A DNA stretch of 5,233 nt from a virus. Its lineage: Duplodnaviria; Heunggongvirae; Uroviricota; Caudoviricetes. Location: IMG/VR virus record IMGVR_UViG_2660238548_000009; one strand, 5' to 3'. The notes under the pieces are model-generated. The model was not told the origin of the DNA. It did not search any database and saw only the letters and a program-made list of their open reading frames with translations. A program made the position numbers and the translations under genes. Of the stretch, positions 1 through 5,098 are shown in pieces (positions within the stretch are counted from its first letter, which is position 1; each line of letters opens with the position of its first letter).

Positions 1-79
1 GTAATTTACGGGTGATTCGTTCAAGTAAAGATTCGGAAGGGCAGCCAGCAACAGGCCACCCTGCAATGGCATATTGCAT
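1..79 (-). CDS. cIII: cIII, 5' portion only (gene runs off the left edge of the window)
   Basis: Minus-strand translation from ATG at 79..77 gives MQYAIAGWPVAGCPSESLLERITRKL, which I recognise as the N-terminus of lambda CIII. SD AAGGAG (complement of 86..91) lies 6 nt upstream. Confidence 0.85.
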   Translation of the reverse strand, partial: MQYAIAGWPVAGCPSESLLERITRKL

Positions 80-151
80 GGTGTGCTCCTTATTTATACA
101 TAACGAAAAACGCCTCGAGTGAAGCGTTATTGGTATGCGGTAAAGCCGCGC

Positions 152-463
152 TTAGGCGGCTGATGTTTCTTCTTTCAGGCTTTCGAGATATTTACGTGGG
201 TCGTCGTAACATTGGCATTCGCTGTACCAATCCACCCAGCGATCAGTAAGCCCCATCTCTGATAAATCTTCATCGGTAAGGCTCTCATCCCACATCTCAA
301 GGCCGTTAGCATTGCAGTAATCAGGCTTGATGTTGTTGTCATACTGAAAGGCGTCATAATCAGCCAGTGCGTCCATCAGACGAACACCCTCTTCAACACT
401 TGCCACTTCTACAATGAACGGCTTCATAGGTACTTGCGGGATATGCCAGACACGTAATTTCAT
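152..463 (-). CDS. Hypothetical 103-aa early-left-operon protein in the position lambda uses for ea10; not homologous to lambda Ea10 as recalled
   Basis: ORF-track frame 152..517; I place the start at the internal ATG 463..461 (MKLRVWHIPQV...) because it has a strong SD GGAGG (complement of 468..472) and the upstream in-frame codons run through a terminator hairpin. Ends ...LKEETSAA, stop TAA. Confidence 0.6.
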   Translation of the reverse strand: MKLRVWHIPQVPMKPFIVEVASVEEGVRLMDALADYDAFQYDNNIKPDYCNANGLEMWDESLTDEDLSEMGLTDRWVDWYSECQCYDDPRKYLESLKEETSAA

Positions 464-475
464 ATATCCTCCGTC

Positions 476-504
476 AAAAAAATTGCCCTCACACTGGAGG
501 GCAA
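476..504 (-). terminator. Intrinsic terminator for leftward transcription (hairpin plus U7), lambda tL2-like position
   Basis: Minus-strand RNA reads UU-GCCCUC-CAGUGU-GAGGGC-AA followed directly by UUUUUUU (complement of A-run 476..482). Core stem 485..490/497..502, extendable by two A-U pairs. Confidence 0.5.
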
Positions 505-565
505 AGAAGATTTCCAATAATCAGAACAAGTCGGCTCCTGTTTAGTTACGAGCGACATTGCTCCG

Positions 566-592
566 TGTATTCACTCGTTGGAATGAATACAC
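566..592 (-). other. Perfect 9-bp inverted repeat (GTGTATTCA / TGAATACAC, 9-nt loop); possible RNA hairpin or processing site
   Basis: gtgtattca (566..574) is the exact reverse complement of tgaatacac (584..592). No U-tract follows on either strand, so it is not a canonical terminator. Confidence 0.4.
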
Positions 593-606
593 AGTGCTTA
601 TTCGTA

Positions 607-1077
607 CTAATAAAATACCCAATTTTCTGTTTCTTGGTTATGTCCAAAGTTATATTCAATATCTGGTGTTGATGTATCAATATTTTTCATCCCATCAACA
701 AGAGTTGATACAACAGCCAAATCTTGTTTTATTCTCATTAAATGGTATTTCTTCCGGCGCAATAAACTTTCAATAGCAAGTTTCTTCGTTGGGAATGCAA
801 AAGATCTTTCTGCATTTTTTGCTACTTTCTTAATTGCATATCTATTTCTCCTTTGTTTCCATTCCTGTAACCACTGATTTGGTGCTGGTTTAAAATTAAC
901 AATCCAATGCGCAGGAACCAACCATGCATAATGCTCTGTCTGATGAAAAGCTATATATTGAAGTGCGAATATTTTTATCCCATCTTCTTCAACTGTCGCC
1001 TGGAATCTCCAGAAAACAGGCATTCCATCATGTTCAGTTTCTAATTCAGGAAAAGGTACGCTCCATGATTTTGTCAT
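607..1077 (-). CDS. Hypothetical 156-aa protein, function unknown (occupies the ral/sieB slot downstream of N)
   Basis: ORF-track ORF with SD GAGGTGA (complement of 1081..1087) 6 nt upstream of ATG 1077..1075. Acidic N-terminal part and a strongly basic central segment (KQRRNRYAIKKVAKNAERSFAFPTKKLAIESLLRRKKYHLMRIKQ). Co-oriented with N. Confidence 0.65.
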   Translation of the reverse strand: MTKSWSVPFPELETEHDGMPVFWRFQATVEEDGIKIFALQYIAFHQTEHYAWLVPAHWIVNFKPAPNQWLQEWKQRRNRYAIKKVAKNAERSFAFPTKKLAIESLLRRKKYHLMRIKQDLAVVSTLVDGMKNIDTSTPDIEYNFGHNQETENWVFY

Positions 1078-1135
1078 ATCTCACCTCAAATAAGTGGTTT
1101 GCTGCCTAATTTCATTTTCTGGCGACCAACACAAG

Positions 1136-1519
1136 TCACCTCGCCGTCAGTTGTTTGGATTTCCGGTAGCCTGCCGCGTAAATGGCTACGTTTGGAAGAC
1201 ATACACCAGTTTCTGGTTGCTTATGTCCAAACTCATTCGCGTACACAATGGCCGCTCGCTCCAGATTGCGTCTGTATTCTTTCTGTTGCCAGATCACGTC
1301 CTGTGCCATGAACTTAATTGGCTTAGCGTCTTCTATACGCTCAGGCGTTTCGTGAGTACCTTTAGCCTGAATCTGCGCTCTGCTTAGAGTAGGGCGGTGT
1401 AATACTTCTGAACTTATTGCTTCTTCGCGGGCCAGTACGCCGTTAGCTAATGCCTTTACCTTTAAACGCTCACGACGACGAGAACGTGAATTGCCTTTGA
1501 ACTGAGTTCTGCGTGTCAT
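1136..1519 (-). CDS. N: N-type transcription antiterminator, non-lambda specificity (P22/21/H-19B-like)
   Basis: 127-aa product MTRRTQFKGNSRSRRRERLKVKA... has an N-terminal arginine-rich motif typical of N-family proteins. Start ATG 1519..1517 has SD AGGAGG (complement of 1525..1530). The 46 extra upstream codons of ORF 1136..1657 lack an RBS and lie in the PL leader. Sits immediately downstream of PL/OL. Confidence 0.8.
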   Translation of the reverse strand: MTRRTQFKGNSRSRRRERLKVKALANGVLAREEAISSEVLHRPTLSRAQIQAKGTHETPERIEDAKPIKFMAQDVIWQQKEYRRNLERAAIVYANEFGHKQPETGVCLPNVAIYAAGYRKSKQLTAR

Positions 1520-1675
1520 ATAGACCTCCTGATGAACTTTGGTGGTGTGGTAGGTGGGAGACCCATTTCGACCTACTTCAATTCGGCAATAGTCCCGCAG
1601 GCCTCGCCGCTTTACGTGCGACATATTCCCGTCCATGAACCCTTCACCACACCCCAAAGTTCACTTTGGTTATTG

Positions 1676-1690
1676 CGCTTTGTCAGCGCC
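1676..1690 (-). promoter_or_regulatory. nutL boxB-like RNA hairpin (GCGCU-GACAA-AGCGC)
   Basis: Minus-strand transcript carries GCGCUGACAAAGCGC (5-bp stem, 5-nt GNRA-like loop) about 60 nt downstream of the predicted PL start. It matches my recollection of the P22-type nutL boxB and fits the non-lambda N. No convincing boxA (CGCTCTTA-like) was found upstream. Confidence 0.55.
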
Positions 1691-1757
1691 GTAGATTCAT
1701 ATTCGAATCGTTGTATATTCACCGCCCTGGTGAGTAGTGCGTCCTGCTGATGTGTTT

Positions 1758-1786
1758 AGTATCACCGCCAGTGGTATTTGTGTCAA
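1758..1786 (-). promoter_or_regulatory. PL promoter (-35 TTGACA, -10 GATACT, 17-bp spacer)
   Basis: Minus strand: TTGACA is the complement of 1781..1786 and GATACT the complement of 1758..1763. Overlaps OL1/OL2 exactly as in lambda. Confidence 0.85.
1760..1776. promoter_or_regulatory. Operator OL1
   Basis: TATCACCGCCAGTGGTA, identical to lambda OL1 as recalled. Confidence 0.9.
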
Positions 1787-1800
1787 CACCGCTAGAGATA
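1784..1800. promoter_or_regulatory. Operator OL2 (one substitution relative to lambda)
   Basis: CAACACCGCTAGAGATA; lambda has CAACACCGCCAGAGATA. The C-to-T change at 1793 creates CTAG. Confidence 0.85.
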
Positions 1801-1803
1801 ATT

Positions 1804-1820
1804 CATCACCGCAGATGGTT
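1804..1820. promoter_or_regulatory. Operator OL3 (position-1 variant)
   Basis: CATCACCGCAGATGGTT; lambda has TATCACCGCAGATGGTT. Confidence 0.8.
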
Positions 1821-1970
1821 ATCTGTATGTTTTTTATATGAATTTATTTTTTGCAGGGGGGCATTGTTTGGTAGGTGAGAGATCAGAATTGCACTGTTTA
1901 GCAAGTTGTATCTATCAATTTTTCAATAAATACAATGAGTTATGTTTTTTTAGGTGGGGGATCGCGAGGC

Positions 1971-1996
1971 AAAGAAAACCCGGCGCTGAGGCCGGG
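1971..1996 (-). terminator. Intrinsic terminator ending the cI-linked operon (lambda timm-like)
   Basis: Stem CCCGGC (1979..1984) / GCCGGG (1991..1996) with a 6-nt loop. On the minus-strand RNA the hairpin is followed by UUUUCUUU (complement of 1971..1978). It lies immediately after the stop of the 55-aa ORF. Confidence 0.6.
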
Positions 1997-2161
1997 CTAG
2001 ATTTTAAAGTATTTATCTTTTAGAGATGTAGATGTAAAACTTTTCGCCTTTGAAAATTTTTTGTCATCAGAAGGGCTTATGAACTCATCTTTTTTGTAGG
2101 GAACCGCTAATGCTGCATCACGTCTGCGAGGCAGCTTGCTTACTTCCTCGCGCTTTTTCAT
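1997..2161 (-). CDS. Putative small lysine-rich protein (55 aa), not in the supplied ORF track
   Basis: Hand translation of the minus strand from ATG 2161..2159: MKKREEVSKLPRRRDAALAVPYKKDEFISPSDDKKFSKAKSFTSTSLKDKYFKI, stop TAG 1999..1997. The ATG lies 2 nt after the kinase stop (TGA-TC-ATG); weak SD AGGA 9 nt upstream. It fills the whole gap between the kinase and the terminator in AT-rich sequence. Confidence 0.35.
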   Translation of the reverse strand: MKKREEVSKLPRRRDAALAVPYKKDEFISPSDDKKFSKAKSFTSTSLKDKYFKI

Positions 2162-2163
2162 GA

Positions 2164-3210
2164 TCAGTTATCCTTTAATAACCTATACAGTTTTGTAGGG
2201 GTACATCCTGAGGATATTGTTAAGTTCGTAGCACGCCTTTTCCGCCCATCATCGTATAAACGAAAACCAGTAGTAGACGAATTTTCTGCGTCAAAAACTA
2301 TAGACAGTATAGCGTCCCCAGACTTTTTTTGCCATTCGCATGTGCCGTTAGTTGGTTTCGTCATCTGTAGACGCCAGTCAAGAACGCCATCACTTATAGC
2401 TGAGAGATCGTTTAGTACATCTAGTACGGATTGATATCTTTCATTTGGATCTACATGAATGCATTTGTTCACTATTGTTATTAATTTTTTATGTATATGG
2501 GGAGGATACTCTTTTAATGGATAGCAGCCATTAATTATCGACTCTCTGAGTTGTTCAATCGTGCTAAATGCAGATCTTTCTCTTTCAAAATTATCATGTC
2601 CAACACACATTCTATATATGGTTAATCCTGCCTGATATATGTCATATGTGAAATTATAATCATTTGTTGATAAAGAAAAATATTCCGGTGGCACATGAAA
2701 ATGATATCCAAACTCAGGCGCAGCTCTCGATTCCTCATTGACTAACTGAGATAATCCAAAGTCAGATAGCATGGCCTCATTTCTGTTTGATATCATAATG
2801 TTATTAGGTTTTATATCAAAATGCATAAGACCTTTTGAGTGTATATGATAAAGTCCACTTAAAAATTGAATGGAATACCGTATTATCTCCCTGCTTGTAA
2901 GATTATTTTTTTTCATTAATTGGTTTAGCGAACCATTATGATAAAATGGCATGGCTATATAGATATTGCTCTCACATTGAGCAGCATACTGAACTTGCAC
3001 AATATTTGGATGTGCATGTTTATAGAGAAGCCTTGCTTCATTAAAGTAGTCGTCGTGGTTAGTGTTTTCTTTTTTTTCTATTTCTTTAATCACCAAGTCA
3101 TGAGCTAGGTGTCTGTCATGAGCCAGATATACTTTTGAAAAACAACCCTGTTCTTCTAGATCACTAATCCATTCGAATTCTACATCAGCTCTTTTGTATG
3201 GAGTTAGCAT
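2164..3210 (-). CDS. Eukaryotic-like (Hanks-type) Ser/Thr protein kinase, 348 aa, with a roughly 80-aa non-kinase C-terminal extension
   Basis: Kinase subdomain motifs in canonical order: degenerate Gly loop QGCFSKV (res 21-27); VIK with catalytic Lys42 (codon 3085..3087); catalytic loop HFDIKPNN with Asp132 (2815..2817), the D-x-K-x-x-N form typical of Ser/Thr kinases; DFG 150-152 (2755..2763); PPE 174-176; DIYQAG; HVDPNER. SD GGAGG upstream; the start overlaps the stop of the upstream gene. Confidence 0.9.
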   Translation of the reverse strand: MLTPYKRADVEFEWISDLEEQGCFSKVYLAHDRHLAHDLVIKEIEKKENTNHDDYFNEARLLYKHAHPNIVQVQYAAQCESNIYIAMPFYHNGSLNQLMKKNNLTSREIIRYSIQFLSGLYHIHSKGLMHFDIKPNNIMISNRNEAMLSDFGLSQLVNEESRAAPEFGYHFHVPPEYFSLSTNDYNFTYDIYQAGLTIYRMCVGHDNFERERSAFSTIEQLRESIINGCYPLKEYPPHIHKKLITIVNKCIHVDPNERYQSVLDVLNDLSAISDGVLDWRLQMTKPTNGTCEWQKKSGDAILSIVFDAENSSTTGFRLYDDGRKRRATNLTISSGCTPTKLYRLLKDN

Positions 3211-3665
3211 CCCCTTACCTCCGCAGATAGTGCAGCCAAAACAGCTTCATTTGTTTCAGTTGTAAAACCAGAATTATCGATTCCATTTATATTGCGGTGT
3301 GACTTCAATATTTCTTTATACTCGATCTCTGTTAGGTTCAATGATGATTTCATGCCAGATTTTCTAATAGTGTAATATTTTCTTACATCACTGCTTGAAA
3401 ATGCTTCTTGAATAACAGCTTCTATATAAAGGCGGTCAATGCTAAGATTATCAGAGTTTGATTCAGTAACGCGTATGGCAGCTAATTCAACATTATATAA
3501 ATTAAGAATGTCGAGGATGTTATTTCTCACATACTTTAATTTTTCTGGTGTGTCTAAGGTCGAAGGTATTTTAATGACATCAACACATTTGAGTGCAGAC
3601 TCATTAGTGCAATATACAACAAAAGATGTAACTTTGGGCGCCGCTCTAACACCTAGTATTCTCAT
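3204..3665 (-). CDS. Hypothetical 153-aa protein, translationally coupled to the kinase; possible RNase H-like/RuvC-like fold (weak, by eye)
   Basis: ORF-track ORF. Its stop TAA (3206..3204) overlaps the kinase ATG (3210..3208) as ATGCTAA. Segments MRILGVRAAPKVTSFVVY, PEKLKYV...LAAIRV and NEAVLAALSAE resemble the RuvC segments ILGIDPGSRVTGYGV, PSRLKLI...FAIEQV and DAADALAIAI, but Arg sits where the first two catalytic acidic residues would be. Confidence 0.7.
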   Translation of the reverse strand: MRILGVRAAPKVTSFVVYCTNESALKCVDVIKIPSTLDTPEKLKYVRNNILDILNLYNVELAAIRVTESNSDNLSIDRLYIEAVIQEAFSSSDVRKYYTIRKSGMKSSLNLTEIEYKEILKSHRNINGIDNSGFTTETNEAVLAALSAEVRGC

Positions 3666-3716
3666 TTTTTATATCCTATTTTAGAATCAGGCCGCATCTC
3701 TGCGACCATCCATCAT

Positions 3717-3731
3717 CCAAACGTCTCTTCA
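3717..3731. repeat. 15-bp direct repeat, copy 1 (ccaaacgtctcttca), downstream of the 113-aa gene
   Basis: Exact 15-nt match to 4088..4102. On the minus strand it reads TGAAGAGACGTTTGG followed by ATGA, i.e. a copy of the cI C-terminal codons EETFG plus an in-frame stop. Confidence 0.9.
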
Positions 3732-3732
3732 C

Positions 3733-4074
3733 TCATCCGAAGAAGCAGCAATCCGGGTCAGCACGCACAAGCTCAAGCGCATCAGTCAGCGAAAGTTCAG
3801 TACTGTACTGATGCCATTTCATATCCTTCCGCATCCAATAGATTTTCCATCTATCCAGAGAACGTATGTACTTGATTCTTGCTGATGGCAGGATGTTTGT
3901 TTCACCTGGGTTGCCCTGCCACACGGGGCGCTGTTCGCCGATATCTATCGTTTGGTCATTGATGCTATAAACAATATCCAGTTCATTGCGGATATGTTCA
4001 GGCGGCCTTATGCTTTCAATGAATTGGTGAACTTCTTTTTTGACCGCTTGATATTCAAGGTCAGTGAACGCCAT
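3733..4074 (-). CDS. Hypothetical 113-aa protein, first gene downstream of cI (occupies the rexA position)
   Basis: ORF-track ORF. ATG 4074..4072 lies 9 nt after the cI stop with a strong SD GAGGAGGA (complement of 4078..4085) inside the cI 3' end. W/Y-rich (WKIYWMRKDMKWHQY), ends in CCFFG. No motif I can assign. Confidence 0.7.
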   Translation of the reverse strand: MAFTDLEYQAVKKEVHQFIESIRPPEHIRNELDIVYSINDQTIDIGEQRPVWQGNPGETNILPSARIKYIRSLDRWKIYWMRKDMKWHQYSTELSLTDALELVRADPDCCFFG

Positions 4075-4083
4075 CTATCCTCC

Positions 4084-4800
<717 letters not shown>

Positions 4801-4897: not shown

Positions 4898-5098
4898 ATG
4901 GAACAACGCATAACCCTGAAAGATTATGCAATACGCTTTGGGCAAACCAAGGCGGCTAAAGATCTCGGCGTATATCAAAGCGCGATTAACAAGGCCATTC
5001 ATGCAGGCCGAAAGATTTTTTTAACTATAAACGCTGATGGAAGCGTTTATGCGGAAGAAATAAAGCCCTTCCCAAGTAACAAAAAAACAACTGCATAA
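4898..5098 (+). CDS. cro: Cro repressor, lambda-type (66 aa)
   Basis: [66 protein letters not shown] is near-identical to lambda Cro as recalled (three conservative differences). Sits directly downstream of PR/OR1. Confidence 0.95.

Follow-up and report, generated by a model that had tools for sequence, protein, structure and literature searches.

Few protein kinases encoded by phages have been characterised, and one of them is Stk of phage 933W, a textbook abortive-infection gene of prophages, found in Shiga-toxin prophages. The kinase is cotranscribed with cI (PMC3564112) and expressed in lysogens, where it aborts the infection by phage HK97 (PMC3564112, PMC3681748, PMC8008677), the exclusion proceeding by triggered tyrosine phosphorylation (PMC3681748, PMC8008677). 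In the accessible papers, which do not include the primary Stk paper, the system is the kinase alone and a partner with a RuvC fold is not mentioned. Here we analyse a stretch of 5,233 nucleotides (nt) of a caudoviricete, the IMG/VR record IMGVR_UViG_2660238548_000009 (hereafter the window), in which a gene coding for a protein of 153 amino acids (aa) overlaps the start of stk. The window is a lambdoid immunity region and holds the same locus as 933W: the 153-aa protein and the kinase are 100% identical to L0083 and Stk of that phage, and the genes follow in the same order (cI, L0084, L0083, stk, L0081, tM), but 933W has its own cI ahead of the cassette and the window has a lambda-type cI instead.

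With a RuvC fold, a loss of catalytic residues, an invariable pairing with the kinase and a coupled junction established in this analysis, we lean towards the view that the 153-aa protein is a catalytically inactive pseudo-resolvase of RuvC fold, which would be the obligate partner of Stk and act as its regulatory or sensor subunit.

The AlphaFold model of the 153-aa protein (alignment of 31 homologues plus the query) has a predicted local distance difference test (pLDDT) value of 91.6 and a predicted template modelling score (pTM) of 0.86. Strands at residues 2-8 (b1), 12-19 (b2) and 24-32 (b3), a helix at 39-56 (a1), a strand at 61-65 (b4), a helix at 76-90 (a2) and a strand at 96-100 (b5) are followed by three helices at 102-108, 113-120 and 136-152. 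The resulting topology, b1-b2-b3-a1-b4-a2-b5-a3-a4-a5, contains the RNase H-like arrangement of RuvC (b1-b2-b3-aA-b4-aB-b5 with C-terminal helices). In the fold comparison, the RuvC proteins of T. thermophilus (score 19.3; 143 residues, 2.4 A), P. aeruginosa (19.0) and a lactococcal phage (14.3) come before chloroplast MOC1 (13.8), the RuvC domain of Cas12k (12.8) and TEFM (11.9), and predicted phage RuvC resolvases in BFVD match the protein with E-values down to 2.6e-11. At the level of the predicted structure, the RuvC fold of the 153-aa protein is beyond doubt. An earlier note, made by a model from the letters of the DNA, had suggested a possible RuvC/RNase H-like fold from a weak resemblance seen by eye, and the fold search agrees with it by returning RuvC proteins. 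The outcome that the note itself had named as contrary to this suggestion, no RNase H-like match together with a confident alternative fold, is clearly not what the search gave.

Sequence similarity alone would not prove homology to RuvC. The identity of the 153-aa protein to RuvC is 12-15%. The Pfam RuvC model (PF02075), whose cut-off is 22.2 bits, gives 14.2 bits (E 0.042) and aligns residues 3-65 with model positions 1-64, that is, the N-terminal half only, and the NCBIfam RuvC model (NF000711) gives 12.5 bits against a threshold of 163. A profile search of the PDB sequences with the family alignment retrieved no RuvC, the best matches being ALIX and MinE (E 0.4-1). Alignment to RuvC with hhalign yielded E-values of 0.004-0.038 at a probability of 1-9%, with a full-length register only in local mode with low mact, the global mode being meaningless. 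In this register R7 falls on Asp7 of RuvC, R65 on Glu66, and E137 (variable) and E140 on Asp/His138 and Asp141 (E. coli numbering). The carboxylate tetrad made of these four RuvC residues is incomplete in the family of the 153-aa protein.

In a complete scan of 1.84 billion representative proteins the family amounted to 442 clusters (E <= 1e-3), and conservation was scored over 121 diverse full-length members. G5, R47, R78, E82 and E87 are found in 100% of them, R7 in 120 of 121 and E68 in 119 of 121. Position 65 is basic throughout (R in 96 members, K in 25) and position 140 is acidic throughout (E in 117, D in 4). An acidic residue at position 7 or 65 occurs in none of the 121 members. The canonical two-metal site was therefore lost long ago and under selection, not through decay. 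The arginines that the earlier note had placed at the first two catalytic positions are thereby recovered, R7 and R65 lying on Asp7 and Glu66 and R or K being kept there family-wide. The position of the RuvC wedge aromatic, Phe69, is an invariant Glu, and the median isoelectric point (pI) of the family is near-neutral, 6.4 versus 8.6-9.6 for the three RuvC proteins computed; with both features, the suggestion that the protein binds nucleic acids finds little support. R78, E82, G/A83 and E87 are invariant and sit on the counterpart of the helix by which RuvC dimerises.

The pairing with the kinase is invariable. A locus scan with one genome per species gave 39 loci of four or more phyla, distributed in Gamma-, Beta- and Alphaproteobacteria, Bacteroidota, Clostridia and Acidobacteriota, and a Stk homologue lies directly downstream on the same strand in all 39, one kinase being broken and a few loci being cut by a contig end. 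The intact and complete kinases at these loci measure 327-358 aa (typically some 345 aa), and the phmmer E-values of those of full length lie between 1e-55 and 1e-133. Terasakiella, Klebsiella and metagenomic loci display the same pairing. In the opposite direction, with the kinase as the starting point, the upstream gene belongs to the family at the loci of Pseudomonas, Elizabethkingia and Vibrio (3/3; hmmsearch 1e-52 to 1e-64). Overall, the RuvC-fold gene adjoins a Stk-type kinase gene in 45 of 45 distinct complete loci examined, from several bacterial phyla, and the Stk defence, so far regarded as a single gene, looks like a module of two proteins. Divergence is equal and parallel in the two proteins (mean distance 0.56 each, Pearson r 0.92). 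In E. coli, 225 of 5,426 complete genomes (about 4%) have the pair.

All-against-all clustering of the neighbouring open reading frames (ORFs) revealed no third conserved gene, the small recurring clusters being antisense shadows of the RuvC-fold and kinase genes. The neighbourhoods vary from locus to locus and are of the kind met with in mobile or defence regions: S24/helix-turn-helix repressors, integrases, IS1595 transposases, C5 and N6 methyltransferases and AbiEii at some loci, Abi_2, a LlaJI restriction system, ArdA and HsdM at the Pseudomonas, Elizabethkingia and Vibrio loci, and JetABCD (Wadjet) at one further locus, where the contig end truncates the gene that overlaps downstream.

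The junction of the two genes in the window reads, on the minus strand, GGAGGTAAGGGGATGCTAA. In the 7-nt stop/start overlap ATGCTAA (3204..3210, minus strand), the ATG of stk occupies 3210-3208 and the TAA of the upstream gene 3206-3204. The Shine-Dalgarno sequence of stk, GGAGG (3218..3222, minus strand), is located inside the 3' end of the RuvC-fold gene, 7 nt ahead of the ATG, and conserved N-termini back the start codons of both genes. The overlap noticed earlier can be read directly from the letters, and 47 of 48 scored locus rows keep the coupling, with a distance of -8 to +10 nt. The sole exception is a locus in which the kinase is disrupted (L024). At this locus of Pseudoalteromonas sp. 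ASV78 (5465-6494), the kinase gene is in two ORFs (5465-5734 and 5757-6494) and the RuvC-fold gene upstream is intact; no other pair in the set of loci has decayed. Fold, family conservation and invariable synteny together lend support to the earlier inference of a degenerate RuvC-fold protein working with the kinase, for which the note had offered the roles of sensor, substrate or effector.

The product of stk matches Pfam Pkinase (2.2e-46) and PHROG 2361 (3.2e-142), and in PADLOC the models mad6 (6.7e-50) and PD-T4-6 (up to 1e-37). It carries the motifs GxGxxSxV, Lys42, HFD (non-RD), DFG and PPE; the last four are kept in 38 kinase orthologues, and all catalytic motifs are intact. The C-terminal domain of about 80 aa is conserved and is modelled as a small beta-sheet and a helix (pLDDT 87), in which no recognisable fold was found.

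Under the proposed scheme, one transcript would give both proteins by coupled translation, and they would probably form a complex, in which the partner would either keep the kinase off in the lysogen or relay a phage cue to it; superinfection would then set off phosphorylation and abortive infection. The pocket of the former nuclease keeps its shape, with the invariant Arg/Lys residues near the invariant Glu68 and Glu140, and this charged pocket suggests a phosphate-, ligand- or protein-binding site and not a two-metal nuclease site. Arginines in the places of the metal ligands could bind phosphate, be it of the DNA backbone, a nucleotide or a phosphoprotein, or could form the interface with the kinase. 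A dimer of the partner that brings two kinases together is plausible, because the invariant Arg78, Glu82, Gly/Ala83 and Glu87 are on the helix of the RuvC dimer interface. A more far-reaching version, which we regard as speculative and on balance unlikely, makes of Stk defence a widespread two-protein system in which a dimeric, dead RuvC-fold protein senses infection, either as a mimic of host RuvC serving as bait or as a binder of a phosphate ligand or branched DNA in the former active site lined by arginines, and activates the kinase by juxtaposition, as for PKR.

Several points weigh against an inactive and obligate partner. The alignment with the C-terminal half of RuvC has low posterior confidence, and four invariant Glu remain, so that, judged from the sequence, a non-canonical catalytic site may be conceivable. 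For PD-T4-6 the PADLOC models are all kinase models, and Stk2 also acts alone. Single-gene kinase defences therefore exist, and the partner is not a general requirement. The exclusion of HK97 was reportedly attributed to stk by Friedman et al. in 2011, and if the cloned stk alone sufficed, the partner would be modulatory and not essential for the HK97 trigger.

An antitoxin-like function is one alternative, unlikely in our estimation although it deserves attention. The RuvC-fold protein would then be only an inhibitor that silences a toxic kinase, its loss or displacement on infection would free the kinase, and the kinase itself would sense the infection, for example through its conserved C-terminal domain of about 80 aa, which could be a sensor. 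A small upstream gene coupled to a downstream toxic enzyme is the order of many type II toxin-antitoxin pairs, and an intact partner beside a broken kinase, as in the Pseudoalteromonas locus, is what would be expected if the kinase were the harmful half. However, a DNA-binding or autoregulatory domain is absent from the 153-aa protein, nothing suggests that it is labile, the promoter of the phage repressor drives the operon without autoregulation, and the deep conservation of the charged former active-site pocket exceeds the need of a plain inhibitor. That same pocket could also be read as that of an active nuclease effector, with a rearranged and possibly Arg-assisted or single-metal site, which the kinase would turn on to degrade nucleic acid of the phage or the host. 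Abortive-infection systems often employ nucleases as effectors, the RuvC fold is complete, and the invariant Glu68, Glu82, Glu87 and Glu140 are near or on the elements that build the RuvC active site. We nevertheless judge this quite improbable: every member has positively charged residues in place of two of the four metal ligands, which disfavours the binding of Mg2+, the near-neutral family with Glu at the wedge position departs from the basic RuvC proteins, and the phenotype has been attributed to tyrosine phosphorylation by Stk (PMC3681748).

The fold could also serve as a decoy of host RuvC, baiting a phage protein aimed at the host recombination machinery; binding of this phage protein to the bait would activate the kinase. 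This we consider very doubtful. Surface mimicry is hard to reconcile with the low identity to RuvC (12-15%), the family spans phyla whose RuvC proteins differ widely, and no phage inhibitor of RuvC was identified in this analysis. Finally, the protein could be a genuine phage Holliday-junction resolvase acting in recombination or packaging and merely adjoining stk. Its name in PHROG 3875, 'RuvC-like Holliday junction resolvase', says as much, and some UniRef/NCBI records read RuvC or 'RuvC family protein'. In every member of the family, however, the equivalents of Asp7 and Glu66 are basic (R, or K at 65), the scores stay below those demanded by the Pfam and NCBIfam RuvC models, the gene belongs to the lysogenic cI operon and not to a lytic operon, and the pair is not confined to phages, since chromosomal defence islands carry it too. 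With catalytic residues missing, expression in the lysogen and members beyond phages, a resolvase is the least likely of the alternatives, and we give it hardly any credence.

The resemblance to RuvC is already known in databases (PHROG 3875), where the 153-aa protein goes by names as different as 'hypothetical protein' and 'crossover junction endodeoxyribonuclease RuvC'. New are the catalytic degeneracy of the family, its status as obligate partner of Stk-type kinases, and the nature of the pair as a self-contained module across phyla. In PADLOC no family matches the 153-aa protein at E <= 1, the only matches of the locus being those of Stk (mad6, PD-T4-6) and of the DUF3024 protein encoded by L0084 (PDC-S43). 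The 90%-identity cluster to which the protein (3207-3665, minus strand) belongs mixes kinase fragments with the RuvC-fold protein and has a 220-aa kinase fragment (P0236) as its representative, which hides the E. coli copy from searches at the cluster level. A literature search, to which the primary Stk paper did not belong, found no description of L0083, of DUF3024 or of a pair of kinase and RuvC-like protein. The locus would thus be a kinase-based abortive-infection defence with a pseudo-nuclease partner, the partner being undescribed in the accessible literature and the mechanism being our inference. If the kinase is always paired, single-gene experiments and defence catalogues are incomplete, the common label "RuvC-like Holliday junction resolvase" is misleading, and the pair represents a new and easily testable case of a nuclease fold reused as regulator or sensor in bacterial immunity, for which the invariant Arg/Glu pocket offers precise targets for point mutation.

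The features of the window are collected in the table below. Positions 2000-4100 have 99.7% identity to phage 933W and many Shiga-toxin phages, and since the window matches 933W, including the tM hairpin, we treat cI, L0084, L0083, stk, L0081 and tM as one unit. No strong promoter-like site was seen on the minus strand between cI and the pair. The window is a mosaic, 933W-like from 1 to 4111 and lambda-type in cI and cro, with a junction at about 4075-4111. No phage record covers 80% of it, and positions 3600-4800, which span the junction between cI and the cassette, are covered to at least 80% in 8 of the 5,426 complete E. coli genomes. A lambda-type cI joined to a 933W-like cassette, and the few genomes that span this junction, therefore indicate that the cassette moves between immunity types as a unit. 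The Stk cassette occupies exactly the slot of rexAB in lambda.

The gene of the DUF3024 protein, which lies between cI and that of the RuvC-fold protein, may be a defence gene in its own right sharing the operon; it is beside the pair only in 933W-like and Proteus loci and is outside the conserved core. In the loci of E. coli, Klebsiella, Pseudomonas and Proteus, small ORFs of 54-68 aa come after the kinase gene or overlap its 3' end (in loci other than the window at 7482-7661 in L004, 4007-4192 in L053 and 6463-6669 in L013). Among these ORFs only that of the Proteus locus is similar to L0081 (E 1.8e-7), which is lineage-specific. The antiterminator N is listed as a 173-aa ORF (1136-1657, minus strand) with a TTG start, which is too long, the true start being the ATG that gives MTRRTQFK. 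The gp17-type gene is a second exclusion function within the early-left region that also carries stk.

Features of the 5,233-nt window (positions as numbered from its first letter)
Feature	Position	Strand	Remarks
gp17-like superinfection-exclusion gene	152-517	-	PF17420 1.2e-55; PHROG 1510
Homologue of 933W L0079	607-1077	-	
Antiterminator N gene	about 1136-1519	-	compared with the 127-aa N of 933W
Terminator-like (intrinsic) hairpin with T run	1977..1998	-	matches tM of 933W; ends the cI-L0084-L0083-stk-L0081 transcript
54-aa ORF, L0081 of 933W	1997-2161	-	2 nt past stk; final gene ahead of the terminator
stk, 348-aa Hanks-type kinase	2164-3210	-	identical to 933W Stk
153-aa RuvC-fold protein	3204-3665	-	identical to 933W L0083
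113-aa DUF3024 protein, L0084 of 933W	3733-4074	-	Pfam 2.4e-31; PADLOC candidate PDC-S43 7.2e-42
Lambda-type cI repressor	4084-4797	-	opens the operon carrying the pair
cro	4898-5098	+	

Compared with known systems, the 153-aa protein differs from RuvC itself (PF02075; PDB 1HJR, 4LD0, 6LW3) in having Arg, Arg and Glu where the resolvase has the acids Asp7 and Glu66 and the wedge Phe69, in being near-neutral instead of basic, and in the linkage of its gene to a kinase and not to ruvAB. Other pseudonuclease modules of RuvC or YqgF type, TEFM and the YqgF-like domain of Tex/Spt6, are structurally far more distant from it than RuvC; they are eukaryotic or housekeeping transcription factors, and none is kinase-coupled or associated with defence. 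A kinase is found next to a protein of another sub-fold in Kae1-Bud32 (KEOPS), whose biology, tRNA modification, also differs from that of the pair, and no homology is claimed. Type II toxin-antitoxin systems fit the pair in gene order and coupling, but a DNA-binding antitoxin domain was not found in the 153-aa protein. On the kinase side, PD-T4-6, Mad6 of MADS and the staphylococcal Stk2 share the Hanks-type kinase domain with Stk and are phage-triggered phosphorylation defences, a likeness at the level of the kinase domain only. RexA/RexB of lambda occupy the same slot downstream of cI in the lysogenic transcript and are likewise a two-protein abortive-infection module of a prophage, although with unrelated proteins and chemistry, a membrane ion channel and its activator versus a kinase and a pseudo-nuclease.
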